The notes under the pieces: generated by a model
Told to the model about the DNA's origin: nothing
Database searches by the model: none
Seen by the model: the letters and a program-made list of their open reading frames with translations, nothing else
Shown here: in pieces, positions 28,616 through 56,000 of the stretch
Layout: the number at the start of each line of letters is the position of its first letter
How positions within the stretch are numbered: position 1 is the stretch's first letter
Translations under genes and position numbers: made by a program
Assembly: GCA_019509785.1 (NCBI GenBank)
Contig: JAEKLQ010000021.1
Coordinates: 80,082 to 144,081 of the forward strand
Length of the DNA stretch: 64,000 nt
Direction: 5' to 3'
Source of the DNA: Fibrobacterota bacterium
Lineage (GTDB): Bacteria; Fibrobacterota; Fibrobacteria; UBA11236

Positions 28616-29806
28616 ATGGCAACGATGCTACGAAGAAGGTTGCTGCGGACTTTTCTGGTCGCGCTGCCGTTCATAGCCGGTTGCGCATCGGAAGGGCTCC
28701 TGGGGCCGCCGCCGTCGGCCCATCCCAATGGGATCGGGCGCATCGGCGATGGCACCTTGGCGGATCAGTTGGAACTGATCCGCGGGAATCATCGCCTACC
28801 GGCGCTGGCCGCGGTTATTTTCGGCCCGGACACCATTTTCGAATCCGCTTCCGTCGGAGTTCGGGCGCTGGGGCACGATGAGCGCATCGGCCCCGATGAC
28901 CTATGGCATATCGGCTCCCTTACCAAATCGATGACGGCCACCGTGGCGGCGATCCTTATCGAGCAAGGGCGAATCAATTGGTATACGACCTTGGCGGAAG
29001 CCTTCCCCGATTTGCCCATGAGGCCGGAATACCGATCGGTAACGTTGAAGGATCTGCTCACGAATTCTTCGGGGATGGTCGCCGATGCGACAAGGGCGCC
29101 CAGTTGGAATAGCCAATCGGGGTCTACGCAAACCATTACGGAGCAAAGGCTTCAATTGGCGAAAGAGTATTTATCGATGAAACCCGATTCCCCCGTCGGG
29201 ACGTATAACTATTCCAATGCCGGGTACATCATCGCCGGAACCATGCTGGAAAAAGCCACCGGCGAATCCTGGGAGGAACTGATACAAAAGCTGCTTTTCA
29301 CGCCGCTTGCCATGGCAAGCGCGGGTTTCGGACCGCCACGCGGGACGGGCCCGGTCGATCAACCCTGGGGGCATTCCATCGTCGATGACGGATTCGCGCC
29401 CGTTCCCCCGGGCCCCGACGCGGACAATCCTCCTGCGATCGGACCCGCCGGAACAGTCCACGGGGACATGGCGGATCTCGTGAAGTATTACCAGGTCCAC
29501 CTGAAATCGGGGATGGGCCGGCAAACAGGAATCCTTTCCGATAGTTCCTTCCGGATTTTACATACGCCCGTGCCGGGTACGATCTATGCCTGCGGATGGG
29601 GAGTGATCGATAAGGCCTGGGCCGGGGGCGTCGCTTATCAGCATGAAGGAAGCAATAAATTCTGGCTGTCGGATATCTGGCTGGCGCCCGAGAAGGGATT
29701 CGGCATGCTCGTTTTGAGCAACGGCGCCGGCCTTAGGGCCAGCCAAGCGGAAGACGATGCGATTGCCGCTTTGATCACCCGCTTCAATGGCGAACCTCCG
29801 AACTGA
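28616..29806 (+). CDS. Serine hydrolase, beta-lactamase/class-C-like family, lipoprotein
   Basis: Lipobox LPFIAGC. S-x-x-K active-site motif in LWHIGSLTKSMTA. Confidence 0.8.
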   Translation: MATMLRRRLLRTFLVALPFIAGCASEGLLGPPPSAHPNGIGRIGDGTLADQLELIRGNHRLPALAAVIFGPDTIFESASVGVRALGHDERIGPDDLWHIGSLTKSMTATVAAILIEQGRINWYTTLAEAFPDLPMRPEYRSVTLKDLLTNSSGMVADATRAPSWNSQSGSTQTITEQRLQLAKEYLSMKPDSPVGTYNYSNAGYIIAGTMLEKATGESWEELIQKLLFTPLAMASAGFGPPRGTGPVDQPWGHSIVDDGFAPVPPGPDADNPPAIGPAGTVHGDMADLVKYYQVHLKSGMGRQTGILSDSSFRILHTPVPGTIYACGWGVIDKAWAGGVAYQHEGSNKFWLSDIWLAPEKGFGMLVLSNGAGLRASQAEDDAIAALITRFNGEPPN

Positions 29807-30416
29807 AAATCCCGTGGCGAATAAAACCAAGCTGATTCGCCCCCTGTTGTTCGCATCGCTATTGCTTTCGCGCGAAGTCCTGGCGGGCGAAACGATAGAA
29901 GCGCCATTCCCATCGACCCGCGAAAGCGCCGACGAACATCCTATGCAATACGTCTCCCTTACCTTTTCGCCTCTCAGCCTCCTGATACCCGAAGGTGAAA
30001 TCGGCATCGAGATGAGGAAATATGAAAAGTTGGGGCTGGGGGTTGTCGCCGGGGCGGGAAGGATTACCCAGGTATCCCCGGGCGTGAAATTGCATCTCTC
30101 GATCTATGATTTAGGCATACAAGCCAACTACTACGCGGTAGGAAGTTTCCGGCACGGAATGCAATTGGGATTCCGGGGAGTATACGAACATTTCGCCAAT
30201 CCCTTCGTCCATCAACTCCCGATATCGGGCAGCAACTTCAAGTTAGGGTCTTGGGTAGGCTATAAATACGTGATGAAGGTAGGTTTGACCTTCCAGACGC
30301 AGATCGGCTGCCAATATATCTGGAATCACGAGTCGGACGGAATCGAAGGCGGCACGAACTCCAAAAGCGAATCCCTGGCGCCGCTTCTCGAACTCGATCT
30401 CGGCTGGTCCTTCTAA
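29787..30416 (+). CDS. Hypothetical small outer-membrane beta-barrel-like protein (alternative GTG start at 29814)
   Basis: Signal-like N-terminus, alternating hydrophobic pattern and C-terminal ...LDLGWSF ending in Phe, typical of OM beta-barrels. Fold is inferred. Confidence 0.45.
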   Translation: MANLRTENPVANKTKLIRPLLFASLLLSREVLAGETIEAPFPSTRESADEHPMQYVSLTFSPLSLLIPEGEIGIEMRKYEKLGLGVVAGAGRITQVSPGVKLHLSIYDLGIQANYYAVGSFRHGMQLGFRGVYEHFANPFVHQLPISGSNFKLGSWVGYKYVMKVGLTFQTQIGCQYIWNHESDGIEGGTNSKSESLAPLLELDLGWSF

Positions 30417-41236: not shown

Positions 41237-42091
41237 TCACGGACCCGTCGCCCGCTCGTAGCCGAGGCCCGACAACCAAGTGCGGCCGAGGTAGCGATGA
41301 TATCGGATGGCTTGCCGGATGCGGAAACCCTGCCAGGCCAGGCCCATGCCTGCGGCGATCTGGAACGGGCGCGCCGCTACGCCCACGCTGGCTTCCACTC
41401 CCGGATGCGGCCGGATCGAAAGGGAGGCCAAAGCCTTCCAGGCGCCGTCCCCGGACTTGCGGAAATCCAACCGCAGGACTTGGGCCAAAGTCCCCGGATT
41501 CCCGCTCGCATCGGGATCGCGGCTATCCGCCTCCAACCCGATTTGCATGACCCGGCCCGGCAAGGTGGCGGCCGGATGCAGCGGCAGGCCCGCCGCGAAA
41601 GCCCCTACCTTAAGGCGCGGCCAGGGCCGCCAAGCCATGCCGGCCTCTTGCGACGGATCCCATGCGGGCGCCGCCCCCGCCAAGGCGGCGCGCCAAGCGC
41701 TGATGCCGTAGCCGAGATCGAGGGTCCCGGGAAAAGCATCCCGCGACAGGATCCGGACGGACGGCGCCAAGCGGAATCCGTGCTCGGAATAGAGGCCCGT
41801 GATCGATGTAACCCTCCAATCGCATGCCAGCCCGGCGCGTTTGCCGTCCCAGGACGCGCCGACCTCCGCGACGCCCAAGTCGTCCATGCCGTAAGGGCGA
41901 TGGGAATCCAACCTGAGCCCGAATGCGCCCGGGCGCAGGGCCGCCGGATTCTGCCCGAAACCGGACCTTTCCGCAGCTGTCGCCGCGCCCGCACCCAGGG
42001 TGGCGCCATACTCTCCGGCGGTGGGCGAGAGATTGGCGGCTTGGGCCATGGCCGCGAGCCAGAAGCCGGCCGCCACCGGTATCGCTTTCAT
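41237..42091 (-). CDS. Hypothetical secreted/outer-membrane protein
   Basis: Signal peptide MKAIPVAAGFWLAAMAQA. Start overlaps the stop of the upstream LTD gene by 4 nt (42088-42091). Confidence 0.5.
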   Translation of the reverse strand: MKAIPVAAGFWLAAMAQAANLSPTAGEYGATLGAGAATAAERSGFGQNPAALRPGAFGLRLDSHRPYGMDDLGVAEVGASWDGKRAGLACDWRVTSITGLYSEHGFRLAPSVRILSRDAFPGTLDLGYGISAWRAALAGAAPAWDPSQEAGMAWRPWPRLKVGAFAAGLPLHPAATLPGRVMQIGLEADSRDPDASGNPGTLAQVLRLDFRKSGDGAWKALASLSIRPHPGVEASVGVAARPFQIAAGMGLAWQGFRIRQAIRYHRYLGRTWLSGLGYERATGP

Positions 42092-43596
42092 CTTTCCCCC
42101 GCTACGATGGCCCTCTTGCGCGTCCGTCCGTCGCCGAAAGTCAGGCAGAGCACGTAGGCTCCGCGCGGCAACGCGCGGCCGCCGGCGCCGCGGCCGTCCC
42201 ACGCATGCACGCGCCTGCCCGCTCCCCCCCGGCCGATCTCCCTTACGATGTCCCCTTCCAGGCTGAAGGCGCGTAAGACGTAGTCCGCGCCTGCCGGAGC
42301 CAGCACTTCCACCTCCAACGGCGCCTCGGGAAAAGCCGTGCGCCCGGACAAGTTCCAGCCGGCCCCCGCTGGCAGGTCGTTCCCAGCCTCCGGTGCGCCC
42401 GGCTTGATGGGGCCCCAGGACAGGGTATCCACCGCGATTCCCGCCAGGCGGAGGATCAGGGTATCACCGGTGTTACGTAAGGCCCGCCAGGGCTCCGGCC
42501 GCACGACATTAGCCTTAATGGGGCCGAAACGGGCCCGGAAGGCCGCCGTATCCGAAGTAAGGATGATGCGCTCGCCCGGATCCAGGACTCCCGCCTTTGT
42601 CTCCAGCGCCATGGCATCCACCGTGGCCAGGGACAAGGCGATGCGACGGCCCGTCCCTCCCGACACGGAGGTGACGTTCCGGATTTCGACCCACTCCGGA
42701 GCGCCCCCCTGCCCGACCGCTTGGAAGGCCCCGAAGGCTAACGGGCCTCCCCCGGGCTCGCAGGCGACGGCCATGACATTGTCGCCGGGGTTTTCATCCG
42801 GGCTTAAGCTGGCCGACACCCGTCCCCGGGTTCCCGCCGGGATCCTGAATTCCAAGGTGGCGGGATATTCGCCCGCGGAGTCGAGGGAGACGGAATCAAG
42901 CGTCGCCTCGGGAATACCGTCCCAATCGGAGTCGAGGCGCAACGCCACCCATGACCGCGGAGGGGGCCCCGATCCGCGGCTTTCCACGGTAACGCGCACG
43001 CTACTGCCGGCGGCTTCGATCCCCGCGAGGGCGAGATCCCGGCCGGCCGGGGCCGTACTCCGGCTGTTGCGCGAGCCAGGCGTTGCCGAGTCGCCGCCCG
43101 CCTTTCCCGCGAGGGAAGGCAGGAAAGCCGTATAGCCGGCGGCCGCATCCCAAGTGTTTTCCCAACTCGTCCCGGGACGCGAGGCCGGCGCCGTCACGTG
43201 GAAGTTACCCCCGGCCCACGACACGGCCGCATCGAGGGGGCGGCCGTTTACCAGGGTCATGCCGGCCCACCCGCGGGCGCACGCGATCCCGGCCCGCGCA
43301 TAAGCGGTAGAATCCCGGCAAATCAGGAAGCAGTCGGAAGGTCCCAATAAAAGCGGCCCCAGGAGGAAGCTCTGCCCGTCCACGGTAATCGTGACGCCGT
43401 CCAGACGGGTGCTGTCGTTCCCGGGGTGGCCTAGCTCGAGGAATTCACCTTGGGCATCGAGCCAGGCGGCCGGATCGGCGAGGATTTCGGATAGGATGAG
43501 GGCCGGGGTCTCGCTGGCGGCGATCGGGGCAAGTGAAGTAAAAGCGAGCAGCGCGGGCGGGAGCAGAATGCCGTAATGGGACCATCGCGTAAGCAT
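42088..43596 (-). CDS. Secreted protein with two lamin-tail-domain (LTD)-like segments and FlgD-Ig/T9SS-like C-terminal sorting domain
   Basis: LTD-like signatures LILSEILADPA...GEFLEL and EWVEIRNVT. Signal peptide. C-terminal YVLRAFSLEGDIVREI...HAWDGRGAGGRALPRGAYVLCL sorting-domain pattern. Confidence 0.65.
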   Translation of the reverse strand: MLTRWSHYGILLPPALLAFTSLAPIAASETPALILSEILADPAAWLDAQGEFLELGHPGNDSTRLDGVTITVDGQSFLLGPLLLGPSDCFLICRDSTAYARAGIACARGWAGMTLVNGRPLDAAVSWAGGNFHVTAPASRPGTSWENTWDAAAGYTAFLPSLAGKAGGDSATPGSRNSRSTAPAGRDLALAGIEAAGSSVRVTVESRGSGPPPRSWVALRLDSDWDGIPEATLDSVSLDSAGEYPATLEFRIPAGTRGRVSASLSPDENPGDNVMAVACEPGGGPLAFGAFQAVGQGGAPEWVEIRNVTSVSGGTGRRIALSLATVDAMALETKAGVLDPGERIILTSDTAAFRARFGPIKANVVRPEPWRALRNTGDTLILRLAGIAVDTLSWGPIKPGAPEAGNDLPAGAGWNLSGRTAFPEAPLEVEVLAPAGADYVLRAFSLEGDIVREIGRGGAGRRVHAWDGRGAGGRALPRGAYVLCLTFGDGRTRKRAIVAGER

Positions 43597-43656
43597 GCTG
43601 CGGAAAATAAACCCGCGATTCGGGGGCGGTTGAGCGAGGCATCACACGAATGATGG

Positions 43657-43790
43657 GCGCGCCATTGTAGCGCCAAAGGGAGCGCCAATGGAGCGCCAAA
43701 AAAGTGGGAGCCTACTGAAAAAAAGATTTCCGAGGTGGCGGAAGGTCGCGCCATTGGAGCGCCGGATGACGCGCCAATGGCGCGCCACAG
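43657..43790. repeat. Array of four ~22-bp units GCGCCAWTGGAGCGCCAA (two tandem pairs separated by an A-rich 45-bp spacer), immediately upstream of the LTD operon
   Basis: gcgccattgtagcgccaaa / gcgccaatggagcgccaaa / gcgccattggagcgccgg / gcgccaatggcgcgccac read directly. GCGCCA occurs 8 times in 134 bp. Core CCAATGG/CCATTGG are reverse complements of each other. Confidence 0.6.
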
Positions 43791-43841
43791 ACGGCAGAAC
43801 GACGGGACCGGTGGAGTTTAGGTAGGAATTTACGTTGGGAT

Positions 43842-44381
43842 TTAGTGGCCCGGGAATTGGACCAGGGAGAAGACTTCGTGACCCATGTCGCGCAGCTTGC
43901 GGCTGCCGCCCAAATCGGGCAAATCCACGATCACGCCGCAGGCGGCCACGACGGCGCCGATGCGCCGCAAAAGCTCGATGGATGCCTTCATGGTGCCGCC
44001 GGTCGCCATCAGGTCGTCCATCACGATCACGCGTTGCCCGCGAACGAGCGCGTCCTTATGGATCTCCACGCAGTCGCGGCCGTATTCGAGCTCGTATTCG
44101 TAACGCTCCACTTCGGCGGGGAGCTTGCCTTGCTTCCGGACCGGGATGAATCCCGTGCCCAGGCGATCGGCCACCGCGGACGCGATGATGAATCCCCGGC
44201 TCTCGATCCCGATCACCGCATCGACGCGAAGGTCGCGGTACTTATCCTCGAAGGCATCCGTGCTGAGGCGGAATCCCTCGGCATCGTTCCACAGGGTCGT
44301 GATGTCGCGGAAGACGATGCCGGGCTTGGGGAAATCGGGGATGGCGCGGATCTTGGAGCGGATGCGCTCGATGCGCTCCAT
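43842..44381 (-). CDS. apt: Adenine phosphoribosyltransferase
   Basis: IPDFPKPGIVFRDIT and PRPP-binding VIVMDDLMATGGT motifs. Start placed at MERIERIRSKIRAIPDF by alignment to known Apt N-termini (recall). Confidence 0.85.
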   Translation of the reverse strand: MERIERIRSKIRAIPDFPKPGIVFRDITTLWNDAEGFRLSTDAFEDKYRDLRVDAVIGIESRGFIIASAVADRLGTGFIPVRKQGKLPAEVERYEYELEYGRDCVEIHKDALVRGQRVIVMDDLMATGGTMKASIELLRRIGAVVAACGVIVDLPDLGGSRKLRDMGHEVFSLVQFPGH

Positions 44382-44435
44382 CTCCGTCCCAGCCCCGCTC
44401 CGGGCGGCTTTGCTGGGGCCTCCGGCCGCCAGCAT

Positions 44436-44768
44436 CTAGTCCTTGCGGGTGACGCGCGGCGCCAGCTTGGGCTTGAGGTACATCGCGCGATCCTTCGCGG
44501 TGAGCGTCCCCATCGCCTTCTTGAGAAGGGACAAGAGCTCCTTGCGCAGCGGGTAATCCGCATCGAAGTGGATCATCTGCCGGTTCGCGTCCTTCTTCAC
44601 CGTGATGACGCCGCCGCGTAGCAGATTCTTCAACTGGGTCTGCACGCCGAAGAGGGGCAGCTTCAGGTTGATCGTCAGCTCGCGCGGATACGTTTCTTTA
44701 TAGACGCTCAGGTACAGCAGGATTTTGGCGCGCGTGGCCGATCCGATCAAGGAGCGCAGAGCTTTCAT
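44436..44768 (-). CDS. Small hypothetical protein, possibly winged-helix DNA-binding
   Basis: 110-aa ORF. AKILLYLSVYKETYPRELTINLKLPLFGVQTQLKNLLRGGVITVKKDANRQ resembles a wHTH. Weak assignment. Confidence 0.4.
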   Translation of the reverse strand: MKALRSLIGSATRAKILLYLSVYKETYPRELTINLKLPLFGVQTQLKNLLRGGVITVKKDANRQMIHFDADYPLRKELLSLLKKAMGTLTAKDRAMYLKPKLAPRVTRKD

Positions 44769-44795
44769 CTTTATATTCCCCCTTCACTATCCGGG

Positions 44796-45779
44796 TCATC
44801 CCCGAATGTGATACTTCTTCAGGCTTGGTGCGGATTCGGCGATTAGCCCCATGATCCGGGCATGCGCCTCTTCTCCCCCCTGGGTTTCCCGCACCGGGAC
44901 CAAAGGTAGATAAAGAGGTGAGTTGAAGAAGGTCGCTAATGGGATCGGATTCTTGCGGCAGAACACCGCCTTCACCATCGGATCAAGCGCGGCTTGTATG
45001 GCCGCGGCTTGCTTGCGATCTCCGCCACGGAACGCCCGGATTAGGGACAAGTAGTCCCGGGATACCTCAGGAATGTTACCGCCCGCGGTTATGATTCCGC
45101 TTCCGCCCAGTTCGAGTATCGCGTAGAGCGCATCATCTTCGCCGCTTACTAGGGAAAATTCCTCGGGAGAAACCTTAGAGAGGACCGCTTGCGTGTCCTC
45201 TCGATATTTCCCGGGAACCTTGAAGTCCACGGCCTGCTTTAGACCAATGACATTGGCGTTCCGGGACAAGTGGACGAGGGTGTCCGGCTCGATGTAGCTC
45301 GCTGTACGTCCCGGTACGTTATAGATGATCAGCTTCGCGCCGGTCTCGCGCGCGAGCGTTTCGTAGTGCCGGACCAGGCCTTCTTGCGGGGGGTTATTAT
45401 AGTAGCCCGTGACGCAAAGGCATGCCAAGGCTCCGGCGTCCTTGAGGATCGCTTGGATCATGTCCACCGATTCGCGCGTGCTGTTCGACCCCGCGCCGGC
45501 GATTACGGGAACGCGCCCGTCCACGTAGTCCACCGTGAACTTCACGAATTCGATATGCTGCTGATGGCTCACCGTGGGGCTTTGCCCCGTCGTACCCACC
45601 GGTACCAGTCCGTCCACGCCGGTCGCGATGAGATCATCGATGATGTGCTTCGCTTTGGCATAATCGATCGAGTTGCGGAGGCGGGCCGGATCATCGTCCT
45701 TGAGGGGCGTGAACAGGGCCGGGAAAACGCCCTTGAGTTCCCGACCGGTTGAAATGCTTCTGCGCTTGGTATCAGCCAT
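44796..45779 (-). CDS. dapA: 4-hydroxy-tetrahydrodipicolinate synthase family (DapA-like) lyase
   Basis: DHDPS-family blocks ([28 protein letters not shown], Schiff-base Lys region). Start at ATG 45779 rather than 45845 to avoid a 74-bp overlap with accC. Confidence 0.75.
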
Positions 45780-47136
45780 TTGCCTTCTCGACGAGTAGTT
45801 CCGGATGTTGCTCAAGGAACTTGGTGCTGTATTGACCTTTGACAAACAAGGGGTGCTGCAGGATGCGTTTGTGCAGCGGAATTGTGGTCTTCACGCCGAC
45901 GATGACGAATTCGTCCAAGGCGCGCAGCATGCGGGCGATGGCCCACTCGCGCGTGGGCGCGTGCACGATGAGCTTGGCGATCATGCTGTCGTAATTGGGG
46001 GGCACTTCGTAGCCGCTATAGCAATGGGTATCCACGCGCACGCCCATGCCGCCGGGCAAATGGAAGTCGGTGATGGTGCCGGGAGAGGGCCGGAAGTCAT
46101 GGAAGGCGTCCTCGGCATTGATACGGCACTCGATGCTATGGCCCGCGAGCATGATGCTTTTCTGGGAAAACTCCAGCTTCTCGCCCGCCGCCACCAGGAT
46201 CTGGGCCCGCACCAGGTCGATGCCGGTCACCGCTTCGGTTACCGGATGCTCCACCTGGATGCGGGTATTCATCTCCATGAAATAGAAAGAGGAGTCCTTG
46301 TCGAAAAGGAATTCGATGGTGCCGGCGTTGTAATAGCCCGCGCCCTTGGCCCCGGCCACCGCCACCTTGCCCATCTTTTCGCGCACTTCGGGAGAAACGG
46401 CCGGGCTCGGGCTTTCCTCGATCAGCTTCTGGTGTCGCCGTTGGATGGAGCAATCGCGTTCGCCCAGATAGGTCATATTCCCGTGCTTATCGCCCATCAA
46501 CTGGATCTCGATATGCCGCGGCTCGGTGAAGTAACGTTCGAGGTACACGCTGCCGTTGCCGAAGCAGGCCAGCGCCTCGGCCGAAGCGACCGGGAAAAGC
46601 TTGGTCAGTTCCTCTTCGTTCAGGGCCACGCGCATCCCGCGCCCGCCTCCGCCCGCAGTGGCTTTTACGATCACCGGATAGCCCACCGCCTTCGCGGCCG
46701 ATATGGCTTCCTTCAGGTTATGCACCAGGCCCTCGGAGCCCGGGATGGTGGGCACGCCGGCCGCCTTCATGGTGGCCTTGGCCTGCGACTTGTCGCCCAT
46801 GGACCGGATGGCCGCCGGCGAGGGGCCGATGAAGGTCATGCGGTTCTCTTCGCACATCTCGGCGAACTTGGCGTTCTCGGAAAGGAAGCCGTAGCCCGGA
46901 TGGATGGCGTCGGCATTGGTCAATTCCGCCGCGGCCAGGATCTGCTTCATGTTGAGGTAGCTCTGCTTCGAGTTGGGCGGCCCGATGCAGATGTCCTCGT
47001 CGGCGAAATGCACGTGGAGGGAATGGTTGTCGGCGGTGGAATGCACGGCCACGGTCTTGATGCCGAGTTCCTTGCACGAACGGATGACACGCAGCGCTAT
47101 TTCGCCCCGGTTAGCGATCAGGATTTTCTTAAACAC
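45772..47136 (-). CDS. accC: Acetyl-CoA carboxylase, biotin carboxylase subunit
   Basis: ATP-grasp biotin carboxylase blocks ([42 protein letters not shown]). Confidence 0.9.
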
Positions 47137-48229
47137 CCTGCATCCAGCTCCGGTCGGAGGTGCCCTCGACTCCTTTTACCTTGAGTTCGAAATCGTCGGG
47201 ATTGCTGGCGCTGCGCAAGGCGGTCTCATAGCTGATCAGGTCGTCCTGGTAAAGGCGGAGGATGGACTGGTCGAAGGATTGCGATCCGTATTGGGTGTAC
47301 CCCTCGCGGATGCTGGCGTCAATCATGTGGGTATTCTCGGGTTGGTTCAGAAGTTCACGGACGGTGGCGTTGTTGACCAGGATTTCGCATGCGGGCGCGC
47401 GCCCGCGGCCGTCCTTGCGCGCCAACAGGCGCAAGGTGATTACCGAAACCAAGGTACTGGAAAGCATCAGGCGCACCTGCTGATGCTGGTGCGGCGGGAA
47501 GAAGGAGATGATGCGGTTCACCGTCTCCACGGCGTTCATGGTATGCAAGGTCGAAAGAACCAGATGGCCGGTGTCCGCCGCCGACAAGGCGATGGACATG
47601 GTCTCCTGATCGCGGATTTCCCCGACCAGGATCACGTCCGGATCCTGCCGGAAGGCCGAGCGCAAGGCGGTGGCGAACCCGTTGGTGTCCGAAGAGACCT
47701 CGCGCTGGGAGATGATGCTCTTCTTGTCCTTGTACAGGAATTCGATCGGATCCTCGATGGTGACGATGTTCGAGGAGGTGACCTCGTTGATATGGTCGAT
47801 CATCGAGGCTAGGGTGGTGGATTTGCCCGAGCCGGTGGTGCCGGTGACGAGGATGAGCCCACGCTTGCGCAAGGAAAGATCCCGGATGACTTCGGGAAGG
47901 CCCAACTGCTCGAAAGCAGGGACCACGCCCACGATGGCGCGGATGGCCAGGGCGGCCGTGCCGCGCTGCTTGAAGGCGTTCACGCGGAAGCGGCCGATGT
48001 TGCGGATGCCGATGGCGAAATCGATCTCGTGTTGTTCGTCGAAGCGCGTCTTCTGGTTGCGGTCCATCAAGTCGAGGATGAACTGCTCCATCTGCTCCGG
48101 AGTCGTGCGGTCGCCCTGCAAGCGGTACAACTCGCCATTGATGCGGAAGGCAGGCTGCCCGCCCACGCGCAGATGCAAATCCGACGCGTTGCGTGCCACC
48201 ATCTCCTTCAGCAAGGCTTCGACGTTCAT
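47129..48229 (-). CDS. pilT: Type IV pilus retraction ATPase, PilT/PilU family
   Basis: Walker [10 protein letters not shown], Asp box, Walker [11 protein letters not shown], His box [10 protein letters not shown]. Stop overlaps the accC start by 8 nt. Start 2 nt after the accB stop. Confidence 0.85.
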
Positions 48230-48231
48230 TC

Positions 48232-48741
48232 TTAGCCGGGCCTGATCCGGAACAGAACCGTCCCGTATTCGACCGGCATCTCGTTCTGGACGCAGACTTC
48301 CTCGATGACGCCCGTGACGTCCGATTCGATCTCGTTCATGATTTTCATGGCCTCGATGATGCAGAGGACCTGGCCGGACTTGACCGCGGTGCCGACGGTG
48401 ACCAGCGGCGCGCCGCCCGGCGTATTGCTGGCGTAGAAGGTCCCGACCATGGGGGAATTGACGTCCTTGAACTTGCTCGCGTTCGCCGACGGCCCGGATG
48501 CCTGCGCGGCGCCGGAGGCGGCAACCGCGACGGGAGCCGCTTGAACCGAAGCGGGCGCCGCCGGAGCGGAAATCGCCATCGGCATGGACATCATCGGCGG
48601 TAAGGAGGCTGCGTGGGCGACTTCCTTCTTCAGCACGATCTTAGAGGTTTCGTCGCTGAAGCTGATCTCGGTGAGGCTGCTCTTATCCAGCAGCTTTACC
48701 AGGGAAGCTACGTCGCTCAGTTGCATGTTTTTCCTTTCCAA
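48232..48741 (-). CDS. accB: Acetyl-CoA carboxylase biotin carboxyl carrier protein
   Basis: Biotinyl-lysine motif CIIEAMKIMNEIE, Pro/Ala-rich linker. Confidence 0.85.
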   Translation of the reverse strand: MERKNMQLSDVASLVKLLDKSSLTEISFSDETSKIVLKKEVAHAASLPPMMSMPMAISAPAAPASVQAAPVAVAASGAAQASGPSANASKFKDVNSPMVGTFYASNTPGGAPLVTVGTAVKSGQVLCIIEAMKIMNEIESDVTGVIEEVCVQNEMPVEYGTVLFRIRPG

Positions 48742-48793
48742 TGTCCTGTGGGCCCGATCCGTTGCGGCCCCGGAGCCGTACCTGCCGCGGAAG

Positions 48794-51349
48794 CTATTTC
48801 TTCCGCTTGGGTACCTTCAGCCCCGGCCTGGGCCAACGGGGATCCGATTCCGGCCCGCGATCGCCCTCCGCCTTGGAGGCTTCGATTTCGGCGATCCGCT
48901 TCCGGACCGATTCGTTCTCGGGTTCCCGCTCTTGGAGCTGGCGGTATATCTGCAACGCCTGCTCCTTTAGTCCTTGCTGGAAATATATTTCCGCCAGGGT
49001 GACCGTGGCAACATTGGCGCCCGCGGCCTGCTCCGGCATTTCCTCTTCCGCGGGATATCCGTCCTCCTCGTCCATCATCGGCGAAAGCTCGGGGGCGGCG
49101 GCGACGGGGCCCGCGCCAGCCGCATCCGAAGGCGTCCCGTCCCAGCGCGCATCGGCGACGGCAAGGTCGCTTTCCGCCGTCGCGGCGCCTTTTCCGGTCA
49201 TGGAAGGGGAAGAGGGAAATAGGGAAGACTCATCTTCCCCTTCGGCCGCGGGACCCGATTCATCCAGCTTGACAATCGGCATTTCCATCGTCACGTCGGG
49301 TTCGGGGAACGGATCCGGCATCCCGGCGAGATCGGTTTCGAAAAGGGGTTCTTCCTGGGCGGGAACGGCGCCGGCATCGGCGAACAACTTGTCGAGCCTT
49401 TCCGCTACGTCTCCGCCGTCCACCATTTCGATGGAAGCGGATTCGGAAAGGGAGGGGAGTTCCTCGGGGGCCAAGGTATCGAAGGCGGTTGCGCCCTCGC
49501 TGCGGGTCGCGGCTTGAAAGGAAGCGGGGAACACGTCTTCGCTGGGCAAAATGAGGGTATCGCGCGCATCGGCGGCGACCGTATCATTCATGTTACCCTG
49601 GAAAGGGGGCTCCCGATCCGCCTGGGCGGTGGCGGGCTCCGCGGACGCCCGCGGCGGATCGGGCTCCAGGTTGAAGAGCCTGTCGAGCTGGGCTTCCACG
49701 TCGGCCCCCGTCACCTGCGGGGCATCGACTTGCCAGCCGGCAGGCGGCATGGTCTCGGTGGAGAGGATGGTTTCGTCCCCGAAGGACGGCGCGAGCCCGG
49801 CTTGCGGCGCAGGTTCGACCTGCGTTGCGGGTTCGGCCCGGGGCGCGGGCTCGTCTTCCGTCGGGACATCGGAAAAAGGCGGGAGCAAGTCCGCGAAGGG
49901 GCCGACAGCGGCGGGGGCGGCGGTCGTAGCCGTTGCTGACGAAACCGGAGCCAAGGAAGCCTCGTCGCTCGCCTTCGCCTTCGGGTCGGGGCCGAGCATC
50001 GAATCCAACTTGTCGGCCACGTCTTGGCCGGTCACCATTTCGCCGGAGGCTATTTCGGATGGGGCAGCCGCCGCGCGATCGCCGAAAGCGACCGCATCGC
50101 CCATGATGACCGTCTCGCCCAGGTTAGGTCCTTGGGCCACCGGCAGATCCGAAGCCGAAAGCGCGGCCGGCTTGGGAGTCTCTTCCTCTCCGGTCAGATT
50201 GAAAAGCTCATCCAGGCGCCGTTCGATGTCCTCGCCTTGCACGCGTTCATCCCCGTCTTCCAGATCTTCTCCCGAAGGCGCCGTCCGGGGCAGGTCGGTG
50301 ACGGAGTTCTCGAAGGATTCGCTTGCGGGCGTCGCAGCATCGGATGCGCCGGGAAGATCGCCCAGATCGAAGGGCTCCGCCTCGATGGGGAAATCGGACG
50401 GGGTCTCCAGCGACCGCATTTCCCCGGTCGCGGTGGCCGAAGCTTCCGGCGGCATGTCGGACCGGGGCGCGGCGGCGGTCCAGGTCGCGGTGGCGGACGG
50501 CAGCCCGCCCTCTTCCGATCCGAAAATGCTGTCGAGACGGTCTTCGACGTCGCTGCCCGAAATCGGGGCGGGCGCGTTCTCGCCCAAGGTCTCCGGGCCG
50601 GTCGAGGTAGAAAGCATGTCCATGGGCCTGGGGTCGGCGGCGGAATCGGAAGCGGGCGAGAAGTCGCCGGCCGGGAATTGGGTCGTGCCCGAGGCCGAGG
50701 GGAAGGAATCTTCCAGGGACGCGAGGTTGGGGACATCGCTGCCCGACGGGAGGAAATCGTCGGCCATGTCGTTGAGATTCACCTCCATCACGTCGCCTTG
50801 CAGGCCGTCGGGCTTCGCGAAGGTATCCTCATCGCGCCCGCTCGGGGTCGGCGGCGCGTAGCGGCTGGTTTCGGAAGGCGCCGATGCGGCCGGGGCGGTC
50901 CCCGTCGATCCCGACCCTTCCAGCAGCGCGCGGATCTCCGCGTCCCAGGGTTCGACTTCGAGGATGGAGCGGTAATAGCCGGCGGCCGCGTCGCCCCATT
51001 GGAGCCTGTCCATGATGAGAGCCAGGGAGCGCATGGCGGAGAGGCAGCGGGGATCCAGGCGGAGCGCCGCTTCGAACTGTTCGCGCGCTTCTTCCAGGCG
51101 CCCGGCGTCCAAATGCGTTTTGCCTAAGACCACGTATCCCGCGACGTGAGGGCGGGCGCGCAGGCCTTCCAAGCAAAGGCTAACGGCTTCATCCAAGCGG
51201 CCTTCGGCGCGCAACGCATCCGCGACGCGGGCGAAACCTGGGGACGCGGCCGATCCCGGGAACTTGCGCTGCAGCTGATCGGCAGTGTAACGAATGCTCA
51301 TGAATCCCCCTAAACCAACGGATTCCAGGACCCGGGAAAGGGCCCTCAA
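48794..51349 (-). CDS. Highly acidic TPR-flanked scaffold protein with five reiterated G-x-D-[VI]-[EA]-x-[RKQ]-L-D-x-[LMI]-F motifs and FimV-like C-terminal TPR motif
   Basis: N-terminal TPRs. ~600-aa D/E/P/S/A-rich low-complexity region with motifs SGSDVEDRLDSIFG, QGEDIERRLDELFNL, TGQDVADKLDSMLG, TGADVEAQLDRLFNL, DGGDVAERLDKLFAD. C-terminus TLAEIYFQQGLKEQALQIYRQLQ. Confidence 0.7.
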   Translation of the reverse strand: MRALSRVLESVGLGGFMSIRYTADQLQRKFPGSAASPGFARVADALRAEGRLDEAVSLCLEGLRARPHVAGYVVLGKTHLDAGRLEEAREQFEAALRLDPRCLSAMRSLALIMDRLQWGDAAAGYYRSILEVEPWDAEIRALLEGSGSTGTAPAASAPSETSRYAPPTPSGRDEDTFAKPDGLQGDVMEVNLNDMADDFLPSGSDVPNLASLEDSFPSASGTTQFPAGDFSPASDSAADPRPMDMLSTSTGPETLGENAPAPISGSDVEDRLDSIFGSEEGGLPSATATWTAAAPRSDMPPEASATATGEMRSLETPSDFPIEAEPFDLGDLPGASDAATPASESFENSVTDLPRTAPSGEDLEDGDERVQGEDIERRLDELFNLTGEEETPKPAALSASDLPVAQGPNLGETVIMGDAVAFGDRAAAAPSEIASGEMVTGQDVADKLDSMLGPDPKAKASDEASLAPVSSATATTAAPAAVGPFADLLPPFSDVPTEDEPAPRAEPATQVEPAPQAGLAPSFGDETILSTETMPPAGWQVDAPQVTGADVEAQLDRLFNLEPDPPRASAEPATAQADREPPFQGNMNDTVAADARDTLILPSEDVFPASFQAATRSEGATAFDTLAPEELPSLSESASIEMVDGGDVAERLDKLFADAGAVPAQEEPLFETDLAGMPDPFPEPDVTMEMPIVKLDESGPAAEGEDESSLFPSSPSMTGKGAATAESDLAVADARWDGTPSDAAGAGPVAAAPELSPMMDEEDGYPAEEEMPEQAAGANVATVTLAEIYFQQGLKEQALQIYRQLQEREPENESVRKRIAEIEASKAEGDRGPESDPRWPRPGLKVPKRKK

Positions 51350-51356
51350 ACCCTCA

Positions 51357-51611
51357 TTATATCAAACCATCCAGGGGAATTGCCTCATCTATCAGCATGA
51401 TGGGGATGTCTTCCCGGACGGGATACAGGATTTTCCGATCCGCCCGCAGCAGGCCCGAATCCAGCTTCTCCCGGACCGCTTCGCCGCCCCGGTTCTTGAG
51501 CCGGCCCGCCTCGATTTCGAGGTTGAGGGACGCGATTACGGACGAATCCGCGAGGGAAACGTCCTGCTTGGTTTCCGGGCAACACAGCATATCCAACAAT
51601 TCCTTGTCCAT
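51357..51611 (-). CDS. Trm112/YcaR-family small zinc-ribbon-like protein (UPF0434)
   Basis: MDKELLDMLCCPETKQ...ILYPVREDIPIMLIDEA matches the Trm112p-like pattern. Confidence 0.7.
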   Translation of the reverse strand: MDKELLDMLCCPETKQDVSLADSSVIASLNLEIEAGRLKNRGGEAVREKLDSGLLRADRKILYPVREDIPIMLIDEAIPLDGLI

Positions 51612-51620
51612 ATCTTCCTT

Positions 51621-52574
51621 TCAACCCGCGAATTGGCCGTAAGCCTGCATCTTCGCCAGGCGTTTCTCGACCAGTACTTCCATGTCCACCTTGTAGAGGG
51701 CTTCCAGTTCCTCGGACAGCACGCCTTTGAGGAGCCGGTACATTTGTTCGGGATCCCAATGCGCGCCGCCCAACGGTTCCCGGATGATGCGATCGATGAT
51801 CTTCAGCTCGAACAGATCGGTGGCGGTGATCTTCATCGTCTCGGAGAGATCGTGCTTCTTGGAGCTGTCGCCCCAGAGGATGGCGCTGCATGATTCCGGC
51901 GAGATGACCCCGAACCAGGCGTTCTCCATCATGAGCAAGCGATCGCCTACCCCGATGCCGATGGCCCCGCCGCTGGCGCCTTCGCCGATGACCACGCAGA
52001 GGATGGGCACCTTCAGCACCGACATCTCCATGATGTTGCGGGCGATGGCTTCGGCCTGCCCGCGCTCCTCGGCGCCCACGCCGGGATAGGCCCCCATGGT
52101 ATCGATGAGGGTGATGATGGGCAGCTTGAACTTCTCGGCCAGCTTCATGCAGCGCAGCGCCTTGCGGTAGCCTTCCGGATGCGCCATGCCGAAATTGCGG
52201 CGGATGCTTTCCTTGGTGTCCTTGCCCTTCTGATGGCCCATCACCATCACGCTGCGCCCGTCGAAGCGGGCCAGGCCGCAGATCAAGGCCGGATCGTCGC
52301 CGAAGCAGCGATCCCCGTGCAGCTCGATGAAATCGGTGAAGATGTTCTGGAGGTAGTCGAGCGTATAGGGCCGGCCGGAACGCCGCGACAGTTCCACCCG
52401 GTTCCACGCGGAGAGCTTGCCCGCGATCTTCTTCTGCATCGACTCTTTTTTGGCCGTCAGATCCTTCACGTCCGACTGGTTGATCTCCCCGGTCTTGAGG
52501 AGGTCCTCGATCTTGATCGACAACTCGACCACGGGTTGCTCGAACTCGAGATGGGGACCTTTAGGAATGGGCAT
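51621..52574 (-). CDS. accA: Acetyl-CoA carboxylase carboxyltransferase alpha subunit
   Basis: AccA blocks ([61 protein letters not shown]). Confidence 0.9.
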
Positions 52575-52604
52575 AAGGGTTCCTTGCTTGGCTATCCGGT
52601 TGCG

Positions 52605-54275
52605 TCATTTCCGAAAATTCAAATCGATCAGGCTCATCTGGCCGGGCTCCGGTTCGCCGACCAGAAGCTTCACTTCCAGATCCTTGGTCCCCTGCTCCGA
52701 GAGCAGTTTCACCGCGGTTTGGAAGGCGCCTTCGTCCACGGCGATCACCACGCCTTGCAAATCGACCTTGCGCACGATGGAGGGCAAGGTGCCGAGATCG
52801 CCGATCATGTTCTGCATGATCTCCTGCGGTACCCGGCCGGCGCCCCACTTGATGAAGCCCACGAATTCGTATCCGGCCAGGCGTTCCTGCTGGATGAGAT
52901 CGGCCAGGCGGCGGGCCCGGGCGTTGTTGCCCAAGATGGCGATGCGCTTGGTGGAACCCATAACCTTGGTGAAGAATCGCCCGCCTTGGATGGAAAGGAA
53001 GCGCCAGGCCGTGAGGCAGGCGATGCTCCCGATGGCGGCGAAGGCGAAGGCCACGCGCGAGAAGGCTTCCTCGCGGATGAAGAAGCTCAAGGCGAAGAAG
53101 CTGAGGAAGGAAACGCACAAGGTGGCGAAGATGGTCTTCAGCTTGGGCACCAGGCGGCCGTAATCCCCGATGTAGGCCATGGGCACCAGCACGGAGATCG
53201 AGACCAGGCAATGCCAGAAGAAATACAGGGGCCGATTGGTATGGTAAGGGGAAAGCATTCCCAACCAACCCATATAGAGGAAGGTGACCGCGTCCAGGAT
53301 CCCGTTCACAAGGCCCAGATCGAGGATCCAACGCTGCCAACGCTGGAAGCGCGAGTACGCGAAATTGGCCACCGCCAGGATGGTCACGCCCAGGTAGAAG
53401 AAGATGAGCGGCAGGGCGCGCAATTCGAAATGCTTCTTCGAGAAGATGACCATGGACTCGTAGAAATAGAGGAAGGAACGGAAGGGCTTGCTCTTGGCGC
53501 TCTCGCCCTTGAAGTGGATGGCCGTGGTCTGGGGATGGTAGAAATTGCGCTTCCCCAGGGTCTTGATGCGGAAGCAGAGATCGAGATCCTCCCCGTACAT
53601 GAAGAAGTCCTCGTCGAAGCCGCCGATCGAGCGGAAAAGATCGGTGCCGACGCACATGAAGGATCCCGAAACGGCGTCCACCTCGTGAGTCTTGTTCTCG
53701 TCCAGGAAGGTGAGATTGTATTTGCCGAAGACGCGGCTCTTGGGGAAAAGGGTGGATAGCCCCATGAACTTGTAGGCGGCGACTTGCGGCGAAGGGAAGC
53801 TGCGTTTGCAGGCCAACTGGAGGCTGCCGTCGCGGTTGACGATCTTGCAGCCGGCCACGCCCACCTGCTCTTGGGCGCGCATGAAGTCCCACATCACCTG
53901 GAAGGTATCCTCGCTCACGAGGGTATCCGGATTGAGGAACAGGAGCAGATCCTGGGAGGCCACGGCGGCGCCGCGGTTGCATCCGGTGCCGAAGCCCAGG
54001 TTCCGATCGGACTTGAGCCACAGGACTTCGGGAAAGCGCGGCTTGAGCAGGGTCAGCGTGCCATCGCGCGAGTCGTTGTCGAAAACGACGACTTCGATAT
54101 CCCCGGCGAACTTCGCCGCCGCGTGGTAGATGCTCTGGATGCAGGCATCCAGGTATTCCCGCACGTTGTACGAGACGATGACGATGGAGATGCCCGGTCC
54201 CTTCGCGCCTTCCGGCGAAAGCTCGGATTGCGGCGCCCGTTCCGGAACCGCGCCCAGCCGCGCCGGCGGCTTGAC
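52605..54275 (-). CDS. Family-2 glycosyltransferase fused to a C-terminal multi-TM + Rossmann-like segment resembling the N-terminal half of WbaP-type sugar transferases (start uncertain, GTG ~54275)
   Basis: GT2 block ISIVIVSYNVREYL...VVVFDNDSRDGT...DED-containing region, then ~6 TM helices, then KRIAILGNNARARRLADLIQQ...YEFVGFI (CoA-binding-like) with no Bac_transf catalytic domain. Confidence 0.65.
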   Translation of the reverse strand, partial: VKPPARLGAVPERAPQSELSPEGAKGPGISIVIVSYNVREYLDACIQSIYHAAAKFAGDIEVVVFDNDSRDGTLTLLKPRFPEVLWLKSDRNLGFGTGCNRGAAVASQDLLLFLNPDTLVSEDTFQVMWDFMRAQEQVGVAGCKIVNRDGSLQLACKRSFPSPQVAAYKFMGLSTLFPKSRVFGKYNLTFLDENKTHEVDAVSGSFMCVGTDLFRSIGGFDEDFFMYGEDLDLCFRIKTLGKRNFYHPQTTAIHFKGESAKSKPFRSFLYFYESMVIFSKKHFELRALPLIFFYLGVTILAVANFAYSRFQRWQRWILDLGLVNGILDAVTFLYMGWLGMLSPYHTNRPLYFFWHCLVSISVLVPMAYIGDYGRLVPKLKTIFATLCVSFLSFFALSFFIREEAFSRVAFAFAAIGSIACLTAWRFLSIQGGRFFTKVMGSTKRIAILGNNARARRLADLIQQERLAGYEFVGFIKWGAGRVPQEIMQNMIGDLGTLPSIVRKVDLQGVVIAVDEGAFQTAVKLLSEQGTKDLEVKLLVGEPEPGQMSLIDLNFRK

Positions 54276-54307
54276 CCGGTGGCCCGGCAGGTTCCGCAAG
54301 AACGTGC

Positions 54308-55018
54308 TCAAGCCGAACCCCCGAAGAAGCGGAGGCGGATGAGCAGGAAGAGGGCTTCCTTGATGATGCCACCCGACATCTTGGAGGCGCCGTGGGTCCG
54401 GTCCCTGAAAATGATCGGGATTTCCTTGATGCGGTAGCCTTTCTTCCAGAGCTTGTACTTCAGCTCGATCTGGAAGGAATACCCGGTGGACCGGATCTTC
54501 GCGAGGTCCAGGGTCTTGAGCGCCGAGACGCGGTAGCACTTGAAGCCGGCGGTGGCATCCTGGATGGGCATGCCCGTGGCCCAGCGCGCGTAGACGTTGG
54601 CGAAGTAGCTCAAAAGCAGCCGGCTCATGGGCCAGTTGACCACGTTCACGCCGTTGATATAACGGCTGCCGATCACCAGATCGTTGTCCTGGATCGCAAC
54701 CAGGAACGTCGCCAGGTATTCGGGGTCATGGGAAAAGTCGGCATCCATCTCGAATACGAAATCGTACCCCTCATCGATGGCGTATCGGAACCCGCGCACG
54801 TAGGCGCTGCCCAGGCCCTGCTTGCCTTCCCGCTGGATCAGATGGAGGTTTTTGCGTCGGGGCAGTTGCTCGTTCACCCACTTGCCGGTCCCGTCCGGGG
54901 AACCGTCATCCACCACCAGGACATCCAGGTCCAGACCGGTCGCGTCGATGCGATCCAGCATCCGGGGCAGGTTCTCCATCTCATTATACGTGGGGATGAT
55001 AACTAAGGTTTTAGCCAT
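54308..55018 (-). CDS. Family-2 glycosyltransferase, dolichyl/polyprenyl-phosphate mannose synthase (Dpm1/Ppm1-like), soluble type
   Basis: LVIIPTYNEMENL...VVDDGSPDGT...DADFSHDP typical of Dpm1-like GT2 enzymes. Confidence 0.8.
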   Translation of the reverse strand: MAKTLVIIPTYNEMENLPRMLDRIDATGLDLDVLVVDDGSPDGTGKWVNEQLPRRKNLHLIQREGKQGLGSAYVRGFRYAIDEGYDFVFEMDADFSHDPEYLATFLVAIQDNDLVIGSRYINGVNVVNWPMSRLLLSYFANVYARWATGMPIQDATAGFKCYRVSALKTLDLAKIRSTGYSFQIELKYKLWKKGYRIKEIPIIFRDRTHGASKMSGGIIKEALFLLIRLRFFGGSA

Positions 55019-55124
55019 GATGCCGAAACAGGCTTTAGACCAAGCCCCATCGGTGGAGCGAATATAACAAAAGGCCCCCTGCGGACCGTGCCGTGCCGCG
55101 GAAATCAGGGGAATTCAGGGAAAT

Positions 55125-56000
55125 TCAGCCGGCATCGACGCGGGCGAGCTGCCCGGACACGTCCCGGGGCGTAAAGTCGGTGTCGCGGATCAATTTGTCG
55201 ATGCGCAATCCCGATCGCAAGGGACGGCGGGCGGCTTGCTTCAAGTCGGCCGTGAGGCAGGGCTGGATGAGGGAGGCATCGAGGCCGTAATGGGCGGCGA
55301 TGGCCCTGGCCCAATCGAAACGACTGTTCCACTCGGACCCGGCCACATGATAGATTCCGCCGCGCCCGCCTGCCACCAGCTTCCAGATCGCCGAAGCCAA
55401 ATCTTCCGCCAAGGTGGGGTTCCCGAACTGGTCGGTGACGATGCGGATGGTTTTCCCCGCCGCCAGGCTATTGCGCACGAAGTCGACGAAGCTCGTTTTC
55501 ATTCCGCGGCCTTTTCCCCATAAGGTCATGGTGCGGACCACCAGCGAGAGGGGAGCGCCGGCCAGGGCCAGGGCTTCGGACTCCAGCTTGGTGGAGCCGT
55601 AGACGCTCAAGGGCCGGGTAGGCGCGTCTTCGGCATACGGCCCGGCTTCGCCGTCGAAAACGTAATCGGTGGAGACGTGGACGAGGGGCTTGCCGAAGGC
55701 GGCCATCCAGCCCACGGTATCCCGGTTGATGAGTCCAGCCAGGGCGGGTTCGCGCTCGCACAGATCCACGTCGGTGACGGCGGCGGCATTGAAGATCCGG
55801 TCCGGGTCGACGGCGCGCACCACGGCTTCGAGTTCGTCCCGCTTTCCGATATCGGCCGAACGGTAGCTCGCGAGGGATTCGGGGAGGATGGGCTCTGGCT
55901 CTTTGCCGACCCCGTGGATTTCCCATCCGCCCGCGGGACGCGCCCGCAGAAGGTTCTGGCCCAAAAGGCCGTTGCATCCCACTAGCAGGATTTTCGCCAC
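55125..56000 (-). CDS. dTDP-4-dehydrorhamnose reductase-like NAD(P)-dependent sugar reductase (RmlD family)
   Basis: N-terminal Rossmann ILLVGCNGLLGQNL, STDYVFDG and YGSTK catalytic region characteristic of RmlD/SDR-extended enzymes. Confidence 0.7.
   Translation of the reverse strand: MAKILLVGCNGLLGQNLLRARPAGGWEIHGVGKEPEPILPESLASYRSADIGKRDELEAVVRAVDPDRIFNAAAVTDVDLCEREPALAGLINRDTVGWMAAFGKPLVHVSTDYVFDGEAGPYAEDAPTRPLSVYGSTKLESEALALAGAPLSLVVRTMTLWGKGRGMKTSFVDFVRNSLAAGKTIRIVTDQFGNPTLAEDLASAIWKLVAGGRGGIYHVAGSEWNSRFDWARAIAAHYGLDASLIQPCLTADLKQAARRPLRSGLRIDKLIRDTDFTPRDVSGQLARVDAG

Follow-up and report, generated by a model that had tools for sequence, protein, structure and literature searches.

A pilT-family ATPase gene between accB and accC in Fibrobacterota and allied phyla: an old, apparently undescribed operon layout

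Introduction

In the classical accBC operon of Escherichia coli and most bacteria, accB, encoding the biotin carboxyl carrier protein, precedes accC, encoding biotin carboxylase, and the two genes are co-transcribed. The pair is normally uninterrupted, and the ratio of AccB to AccC expression matters for fatty-acid synthesis. In the 64,000-nucleotide stretch of a Fibrobacterota bacterium analyzed here (GenBank assembly GCA_019509785.1, contig JAEKLQ010000021.1, positions 80,082 to 144,081; hereafter the window), accB likewise precedes accC, and in related loci pepP, efp and aroQ lie upstream as they do in many bacteria. Unlike the classical operon, however, the window carries an unrelated gene of 1.1 kb, pilT, between the two, and translation of accC appears to be coupled to pilT rather than to accB. 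The locus raises the question of whether this arrangement is an accident of one genome or of its assembly, and of what a pilus-type motor ATPase is doing inside an operon for fatty-acid synthesis.

Our results indicate that accB-pilT-accC is an old operon layout, apparently undescribed, and no accident of this genome, since the same layout is kept in at least five phyla. The reading that we favor, with a probability of roughly 0.55, is that an active PilT-type ATPase has been trapped in, and is co-expressed with, the housekeeping accBC operon, where it would serve a type IVa pilus without any role in fatty-acid synthesis.

Methods

Gene identities were assigned with curated models (TIGRFAM cut-offs and Pfam). 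A scan with one genome per species yielded 80 loci around relatives of the window PilT (designated by L numbers), whose phylum labels are those of the record titles. Open reading frames (ORFs) of all loci were clustered, and representatives were read or scanned; neighbor clusters c33, c34, c49, c50 and c183 of high-GC loci turned out to be wrong-frame ORFs and were disregarded. A neighbor-joining (NJ) tree was built from 84 PilT sequences with a PilB outgroup. Similarity profiles were obtained against solved structures, with Geobacter PilT represented by 5zfq/6ojx and Aquifex PilT by 2gsz or 2ewv, which give near-identical scores.

Results

Layout of the locus

The original prediction placed a PilT-family gene between accB and accC, starting 2 nt after the accB stop codon and overlapping the accC start by 8 nt. 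Reading the bases directly and applying the curated models confirms these coordinates, the gap and the overlap exactly, and the family assignment is borne out by TIGR01420 and PF00437 matches above cut-off (Table 1). The insert amounts to 1101 nt, and accC does not directly follow accB. Together with dapA, the three form four consecutive genes joined by a 2-nt gap or by 8-nt overlaps, the accC/dapA overlap equaling the pilT/accC overlap in length. They belong to a co-directional run with gaps of at most 52 nt that comprises accA, the genes of an 84-aa protein and of a tetratricopeptide repeat (TPR) protein, accB, pilT, accC, dapA, the gene of a 110-aa protein and apt; accA is the first acetyl-CoA carboxylase (ACC) gene of the run, and glycosyltransferase and envelope genes lie upstream of it.

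Since neither the 2-nt gap nor the 8-nt overlap has space for a terminator or for regulatory sequence of its own, these junctions are most naturally read as a sign of co-transcription and translational coupling. In the junction alignment, a GGAG located 13-16 nt before the accC start falls within the pilT codons for the C-terminal tail. A consensus scan of positions 43500-55200 for promoters and terminators returned nothing above shuffled expectation, although promoters of the Fibrobacteres-Chlorobi-Bacteroidetes (FCB) group may differ from the sigma-70 consensus; the one promoter-like site of that scan (49011-48982) falls within the last part of the TPR gene. No Rfam family and no tRNA was found in the 64-kb window.

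The window has a G+C content of 62 %, and its best relatives are Fibrobacterota metagenome-assembled genomes. The G+C content at third codon positions (GC3) of pilT (0.84) equals that of its neighbors (0.82-0.86), so there is no sign of recent import.

Spread among relatives

Comparison of synteny in related genomes revealed accB, pilT and accC on one strand and in the same order in 44 of the 80 loci, distributed over five named phyla: Fibrobacterota, Zixibacteria, Gemmatimonadota, Eisenbacteria and Krumholzibacteria. The accB-pilT pair itself was found in Fibrobacterota (L001-L030 and L037, together with L049, where the locus ends inside pilT), Zixibacteria (L042), Krumholzibacteriia (L045 and L062), Eisenbacteria (L047, L048 and L050), Gemmatimonadota (L056-58 and L061, accC not being detected in L056) and further bins (L038, L044, L046 and L054). 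L019 and L030 carry the record title 'uncultured Bifidobacteriales bacterium', yet their PilT and AccC sequences alike place them firmly within Fibrobacteria, whose gene order they also have; the bins are probably mislabeled. Complete or near-complete records with the layout include a 3.75-Mb contig (ERZ25039538:contig_2699), Zixibacteria CP070796.1 and Eisenbacteria JACKCR010000002.1.

A layout this ancient and common to at least five phyla does not fit the notion of a local insertion, as the wording of the original prediction had implied. The accompanying proviso, that the arrangement might be a conserved feature of the phylum already on record, holds in its first half: the arrangement is conserved phylum-wide and beyond, and in the literature we found no description of it.

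The same data refute the reading of the arrangement as an artefact, be it a misassembly, a chimeric contig or a frameshifted gene. The order recurs in 44 independent assemblies, and an identical PilT protein with the same flanks is present on two independent Joint Genome Institute (JGI) contigs of 2-3 kb. ENA and NCBI gene calls of three relatives, made independently, agree on the accB-pilT-accC order; the ORFs are full length against full-length models, and codon composition is uniform.

The junctions are short. From the accB stop to the pilT start they measure 1-10 nt in most Fibrobacteria and up to about 55 nt elsewhere, the exceptions by our own start calls being -8 in L057 and 76-118 nt in two Gemmatimonadota. 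From the pilT stop to the accC start, most Fibrobacteria have the -8 overlap GTGTTTAA, other Fibrobacteria and Gemmatimonadota a junction of -1 to +2 (TGATG/ATGA and similar), and Zixibacteria, Krumholzibacteria and Eisenbacteria a spacer of 19-185 nt. The overlap is in itself a conserved signal, but the spacer in three phyla means that coupling is not universal. Upstream, accA is present in the Fibrobacteria loci L001-L030 and L037; dapA follows accC in L001-L019.

Phylogeny, co-inheritance and selection

Phylogenetic placement puts the window PilT in a clade of its own, apart from canonical PilT, from PilU and from the PilB outgroup. This clade comprises all acc-linked and pepP-linked sequences together with those of Fibrimonadales and one from Cloacimonadota (bootstrap 59), and its topology follows the phyla: Fibrobacterota, Zixibacteria and L038 group together (bootstrap 85), as do Gemmatimonadota, Eisenbacteria and Krumholzibacteria (bootstrap 65). 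The next clade consists of five Desulfobacterota-like loci in which pilT is linked to recA, with a bootstrap of 100 within the group and of 47 for its sister relation to the acc clade; two more recA-linked loci, from Rokubacteria and Methylomirabilia, lie nearby.

Pairwise distances of AccC and PilT correlate closely (r = 0.93 over 42 loci), and the AccC tree has the same groups; pilT and accC have traveled together. Descent from a common ancestor is the simplest reading of this co-variation, with early transfer of the whole block as the alternative. A recent horizontal insertion is ruled out by the uniform codon composition and by the co-variation of PilT with AccC distances.

In comparisons with relatives, pilT has a ratio of non-synonymous to synonymous substitution rates (dN/dS) of 0.05-0.09 and accC one of 0.06-0.085, with higher values for accB and accA, and amino acid conservation to L001 reaches 93 % for both PilT and AccC, 76 % for AccB and 47 % for the TPR protein. 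The pilT gene is under strong purifying selection and is as constrained as accC.

The wider cluster and loci without acc genes

Across the loci, the usual frame of the cluster is (aroB-aroQ-)TPR-pepP-efp-accB-pilT-accC, followed 3' of accC by comB/ftsK in Gemmatimonadota, by ftsK in Krumholzibacteria and by gcvH-gcvPA in Zixibacteria. Fibrobacterota show three variants. The group of the window has TPR-accB-pilT-accC-dapA; Fibrobacter, Chitinivibrionales and Chitinivibrionia (L031-36, L039, L076 and L082) have TPR-pepP-pilT with a 4-nt overlap and no acc genes; and Fibrimonadales (L040 and L041) have TPR-pilT-rapA. A locus of Cloacimonadota (L064:4998-8164) reads pilT-gcvH-gcvPA, and that of Zixibacteria (L042:4497-9330) accB-pilT-accC-gcvH-gcvPA; in the former, the acc genes look as if they had been lost around a retained pilT. 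The occurrence of pilT orthologues in pepP, rapA and gcvH contexts devoid of acc genes indicates that the orthologue survives the loss of its acc neighbors.

These variants bear directly on the suggestion that the ATPase moonlights in fatty-acid synthesis, for which we found no positive evidence and which is weakened by orthologues lacking adjacent accB and accC. In its general form, the proposal would have the ATPase bind or regulate AccB or AccC, or couple membrane-lipid supply to pilus dynamics. Such a direct link would explain the exact position of the gene, which is kept with overlaps or short gaps in 44 loci of five phyla, and it would accord with the co-inheritance of pilT with accC and with their equal conservation. 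However, the same tail and motifs occur in the acc-free orthologues of Fibrobacter, Chitinivibrionales, Fibrimonadales and Cloacimonadota, the related clade is found between recA and recX, and the 19-185 nt spacer separates pilT from accC in Zixibacteria, Krumholzibacteria and Eisenbacteria. PilT carries no extra domain or ACC-related motif, and no connection between PilT and ACC was found in the literature. We regard a direct link as improbable, and as the weakest rival explanation apart from the artefact.

The most constant companion of pilT in Fibrobacterota, whichever genes intervene, is the TPR gene, a homologue of which lies upstream of pilT in every Fibrobacterota arrangement, with accB, pepP or nothing in between. 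TPR homologues also precede pilT in L038, L042, Krumholzibacteria and some Gemmatimonadota, and are missing near the Eisenbacteria and recA-linked loci. The 851-aa protein of the window has N- and C-terminal TPRs, of which the C-terminal one is conserved, and no signal peptide; its acidic, Ala/Pro-rich middle contains five spaced repeats of the form G.D[VI]xxxLDx[LIM][FL]. FimV was considered as its identity on account of the acidic repeats and the C-terminal TPR, but only generic TPR models matched, and in the absence of a FimV model match we do not file it as such. The protein is a possible partner of the PilT tail.

The PilT-family protein

The protein encoded by pilT is a short two-domain ATPase of 366 aa, not of the extension type (PilB/GspE). 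It matches TIGR01420 over its full length (residues 3-346 on model positions 2-343) and PF00437 with E = 1.2e-49, whereas the extension-ATPase models score far below cut-off (PilB, 137.5 bits vs 675.65; GspE, 145.3 bits vs 630.25). The Walker A, Asp box, Walker B and His box motifs are all intact, and their cores are invariant across 46 acc-linked sequences. On these features, the gene is predicted to encode a catalytically competent hexameric ATPase of the PilT family.

The region corresponding to AIRNLIRE in PilT is diverged, reading TVRELLNQ in the window and TIRELLTQ in the clade consensus. In addition, the acc-, pepP- and recA-linked and Fibrimonadales proteins end in a tail of the form (I/V)xx(S/T)SDxSW, found in 56 of 63 by a strict regular expression (five of the seven misses being Ala variants), in six of the seven recA-linked sequences and in 0 of 21 canonical PilT, PilU and other sequences. 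Since the tail is kept where no accC follows, it is a property of the protein and more than a ribosome-binding site for accC.

Similarity profiles against solved structures (Table 2) place the window protein with neither canonical proteobacterial PilT nor PilU. Among these structures, Thermus thermophilus PilT (5fl3) comes closest, with E = 1.8e-106 for residues 5-352. The C-terminal sequence had given a first impression of PilU, an identity ruled out by these profiles (295 bits against PilU 9n32, vs 408 for a PilU-type protein), and no tandem pilT/pilU partner lies beside the window pilT. The window PilT belongs to a lineage separate from PilU and from the canonical PilT of proteobacteria, with the C-terminal tail as its mark. 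The designation of the gene product as a retraction ATPase goes further than the data: its profile fits neither canonical PilT nor PilU, the AIRNLIRE region has diverged, and its genome probably holds 2-3 PilT paralogues (PMC4704652).

Table 1. Features of the locus and of the PilT-family protein in the window (aa, amino acids; nt, nucleotides)
Feature	Coordinates	Strand	Evidence or remark
pilT, PilT/PilU-family hexameric secretion ATPase, 366 aa	47129-48229	-	TIGR01420 455.8 bits (cut-off 319.1), PF00437
accB, biotin carboxyl carrier protein	48232-48741	-	TIGR00531 141.8 bits (cut-off 115.2), PF00364; biotinyl-lysine motif EAMKIM
accC, biotin carboxylase	45772-47136	-	TIGR00514 733.2 bits (cut-off 626.5); N-terminus fits GTG start
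accB/pilT junction	48227-48234	-	accB stop TAA 48232-48234, 2-nt spacer 48230-48231, pilT ATG 48227-48229
pilT/accC overlap, 8 nt, GTGTTTAA	47129-47136	-	accC GTG 47134-47136 and pilT stop TAA 47129-47131
accC/dapA overlap, 8 nt, ATGGCTGA	45772-45779	-	accC stop and likely dapA ATG at 45779
Walker A	47813-47842	-	residues 130-139; core invariant in 46 acc-linked sequences
Asp box	47738-47767	-	residues 155-164
Walker B region	47609-47644	-	residues 196-207
His box	47540-47572	-	residues 220-230
C-terminal tail, clade signature	47132-47203	-	residues 343-366
dapA, 4-hydroxy-tetrahydrodipicolinate synthase	44796-45779	-	TIGR00674 213.2 bits (cut-off 206.15)
TPR protein, cytoplasmic, 851 aa	48794-51349	-	generic Pfam TPR families
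Small protein with CCPETK motif, 84 aa	51357-51611	-	ORF between accA and TPR gene
accA, acetyl-CoA carboxylase carboxyltransferase alpha	51621-52574	-	TIGR00513 432.8 bits (cut-off 319.3), PF03255

Table 2. Similarity (bits) of four PilT-family proteins to solved structures
Protein	Thermus PilT 5fl3	Aquifex PilT	Geobacter PilT	PilU 9n32	P. aeruginosa PilT 3jvu
Window PilT (acc-linked)	359	339	315/301	295	285
L067, first tandem copy (canonical PilT type)	306	373	367/364	263	449
L075 (PilU type)	316	292	318/311	408	278
L052 (recA-linked)	353	346	358/341	291	300

Pilus genes and comparable operons

Pilus genes occur close to the corresponding locus in relatives. In L084, a contig of 3.75 Mb whose PilT is 84 % identical to that of the window, a PilZ-domain gene, pilM, pilN, pilO, a gene of 610 aa and a secretin gene begin 4 kb after dapA (L084:15255-21101), and another relative has a PilZ-domain gene 2 kb from accC. 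Ahead of the L084 pilus genes, the opposite strand carries a FliN-like gene and an HDOD gene; none of this whole set is present at the matching place in the window. All Fibrobacteres genomes examined in a published survey carry PilA, B, C, D, M, N, O and Q (PMC4704652); with the pilus genes near the loci of relatives, these published sets indicate that the lineage can build type IV pili.

Two solved PilTs, those of Thermus (5fl3) and Aquifex aeolicus (2ewv, 2gsz), share with the window protein the two-domain architecture and all ATPase motifs, and align over its full length at 359 and 339 bits, stopping before the SDRSW tail; at the diverged AIRNLIRE region, Thermus PilT reads YVRELLKDEE. The PilT and PilU of Pseudomonas aeruginosa and other proteobacteria (3jvu; 9n32) agree with it in family (TIGR01420), size and motifs, but the window gene, unlike theirs, is not located beside pilB/pilC or a pilU partner, and its AIRNLIRE region has diverged.

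Among described operons, that of Geobacter sulfurreducens PilT1 (GSU0146) is one of the closest in kind. Its gene belongs to a recA-pilT1-recX operon, is co-transcribed with the upstream recA, and keeps this layout across one family (Speers et al. 2016, PMC5065972). Like PilT1, the window PilT is a paralogue encoded between two tightly linked housekeeping genes, away from pil genes; unlike it, the host operon is accB/accC rather than recA/recX, and the acc layout extends over five phyla instead of one family. The recA-linked loci of our sample, which form the neighboring clade, carry the C-terminal SDxSW tail, and Geobacter PilT1 itself is likened to them by its published layout. Seven loci (L051-L053, L055, L059, L060 and L063), from Desulfobacterota-like, Rokubacteria and Methylomirabilia bins, read ligT-recA-pilT-recX-alaS, with pilT at about 5001-6180 in most. 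As recA-pilT-recX has been published only for the pilT1 of Geobacteraceae, this arrangement is much wider than described.

A second precedent is the pilT of Clostridium perfringens, which encodes a functional retraction ATPase and leads an operon co-transcribed with ftsA-ftsZ, a synteny found in related species for reasons unknown (PMC6958937). Both are cases of a pilus-type ATPase gene in an essential housekeeping operon; there, however, pilT leads the operon and is a proven motor, whereas in the window it splits a two-gene enzyme operon.

Discussion

The favored reading would account for these observations as follows. A pilT gene may have become fixed between accB and accC inside an old housekeeping cluster, TPR-pepP-efp-accB-accC, before Fibrobacterota, Zixibacteria, Gemmatimonadota, Eisenbacteria and Krumholzibacteria diverged, or may have spread very early as a block; pilT and accC have been passed on together since. 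Having no regulatory space of its own, pilT of the window would share a transcript with accB and accC, and probably with all of the run from accA to apt, and in this lineage translation of accC would be coupled to the termination of pilT. The protein would serve the type IVa pilus machine, either in retraction or as an auxiliary motor. Its link to ACC would then be one of expression, namely a constitutive, growth-coupled supply, and of structural trapping rather than of biochemistry: with accC depending on read-through, removal of pilT would require a precise deletion that keeps accC expressed. The C. perfringens operon sets a precedent in showing that a genuine retraction motor can reside in an essential operon (PMC6958937).

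Several observations weigh against this reading. Neither a Pfam scan of some 38 ORFs nor tblastn with PilZ, PilM, PilN, PilO and PilQ of L084 detected a pilus gene other than pilT in the 64-kb window. Fibrobacteres genomes carry 2-3 PilT homologues each (PMC4704652), so that another copy may be the retraction motor; the window pilT is probably one of several PilT paralogues in its genome. The AIRNLIRE region is identical to the PilT consensus at only 3 of 8 positions, the R, the L and conservative V/I and L/I changes being kept. A pilT mutant of P. aeruginosa was not rescued by Geobacter PilT1, which has the arrangement of the neighboring clade, and deletion of pilT1 did not lead to hyperpiliation (PMC5065972). 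The sample of 80 loci reflects the peptide patterns chosen for scanning and does not amount to a census, and the deep nodes have modest bootstrap support in the NJ tree (59 for the clade and 47 for its sister relation to the recA group). Finally, the exact position between accB and accC, with coupling signals across five phyla, exceeds what simple hitch-hiking needs.

In our main rival explanation, the protein is an orphan ATPase of the PilT1 type that does not retract pili. It would have another task, for example in DNA uptake or other traffic, as has been proposed for Geobacter PilT1, or work with the TPR/acidic-repeat protein, and its housekeeping job would explain the placement in constitutive operons. 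Members of the clade indeed lie inside housekeeping pairs in many phyla (accB|accC, pepP|-, recA|recX), share a C-terminal tail that is missing from canonical PilT and PilU, and have a diverged AIRNLIRE region, and Fibrobacteres genomes hold further PilT copies. The TPR gene, as the most constant neighbor in Fibrobacterota, would supply a partner, yet it is absent near the Eisenbacteria and recA-linked loci. PilT1 showed neither complementation nor a pilus phenotype, the rescue having been obtained with Geobacter PilT3 and PilT4 only, of which PilT4 is the motor (PMC5065972). Failed complementation in a foreign host is nevertheless weak evidence, and the likeness to PilT1 rests on layout, not on the sequence of the G. 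sulfurreducens protein. The nearest solved relatives, moreover, are genuine pilus PilTs (Thermus and Aquifex), all motor motifs are intact, and two relatives have pilMNOPQ and PilZ-domain genes at a distance of a few kb. We consider the orphan ATPase a tentative alternative, possible without being probable.

More speculative, and in our estimate unlikely, is an extension of the same idea: the acc-, pepP- and recA-embedded PilTs might represent one ancient, constitutive subfamily of hexameric ATPases with an SDxSW tail and a job other than ordinary retraction. In Fibrobacterota and allies, the tail would dock on the TPR/acidic-repeat scaffold, and the location within accBC would link the amount of the ATPase to the synthesis of envelope and lipids.

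The protein itself is new but its family is known, as were the recA-pilT1-recX and pilT-ftsA-ftsZ operons; the layout of the operon and its distribution over five phyla appear to be new. Retention of an unrelated motor ATPase between accB and accC in at least five phyla constitutes a rare and stable change to a core operon, and accB-pilT-accC can serve as a shared character for a group of FCB-related phyla. It provides a second, much broader case, beside those of Geobacter and Clostridium, of pilus-type ATPases in housekeeping transcription, and the tail motif defines a recognizable PilT subfamily. If the ATPase is simply a pilus motor, the layout is a curiosity of comparative genomics; otherwise, it suggests that a PilT-like motor has a housekeeping role not known so far.

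Additional observations

The 84-aa CCPETK protein, for which a Pfam scan gave no hit, was located by tblastn in about 30 Fibrobacteria loci, always with accA on one side and the TPR gene on the other. In a Gemmatimonadales bin (L077:1857-6659), the gene of a different PilT paralogue comes after trpS and a 2-hydroxyacid dehydrogenase gene and before a gene of the dihydrodipicolinate synthase (DHDPS) family, likewise a housekeeping context with no pilus genes. Elsewhere in the window, long ORFs on both strands at 21060-25285 and 27595-30416 fail the GC3 coding filter. The minus strand encodes a large, secreted-looking VIT-VWA protein with a FlgD_ig-like domain at its end (12682-14889) and, downstream of apt, a large secreted-looking protein of 502 aa (42088-43596) that is conserved in close relatives.

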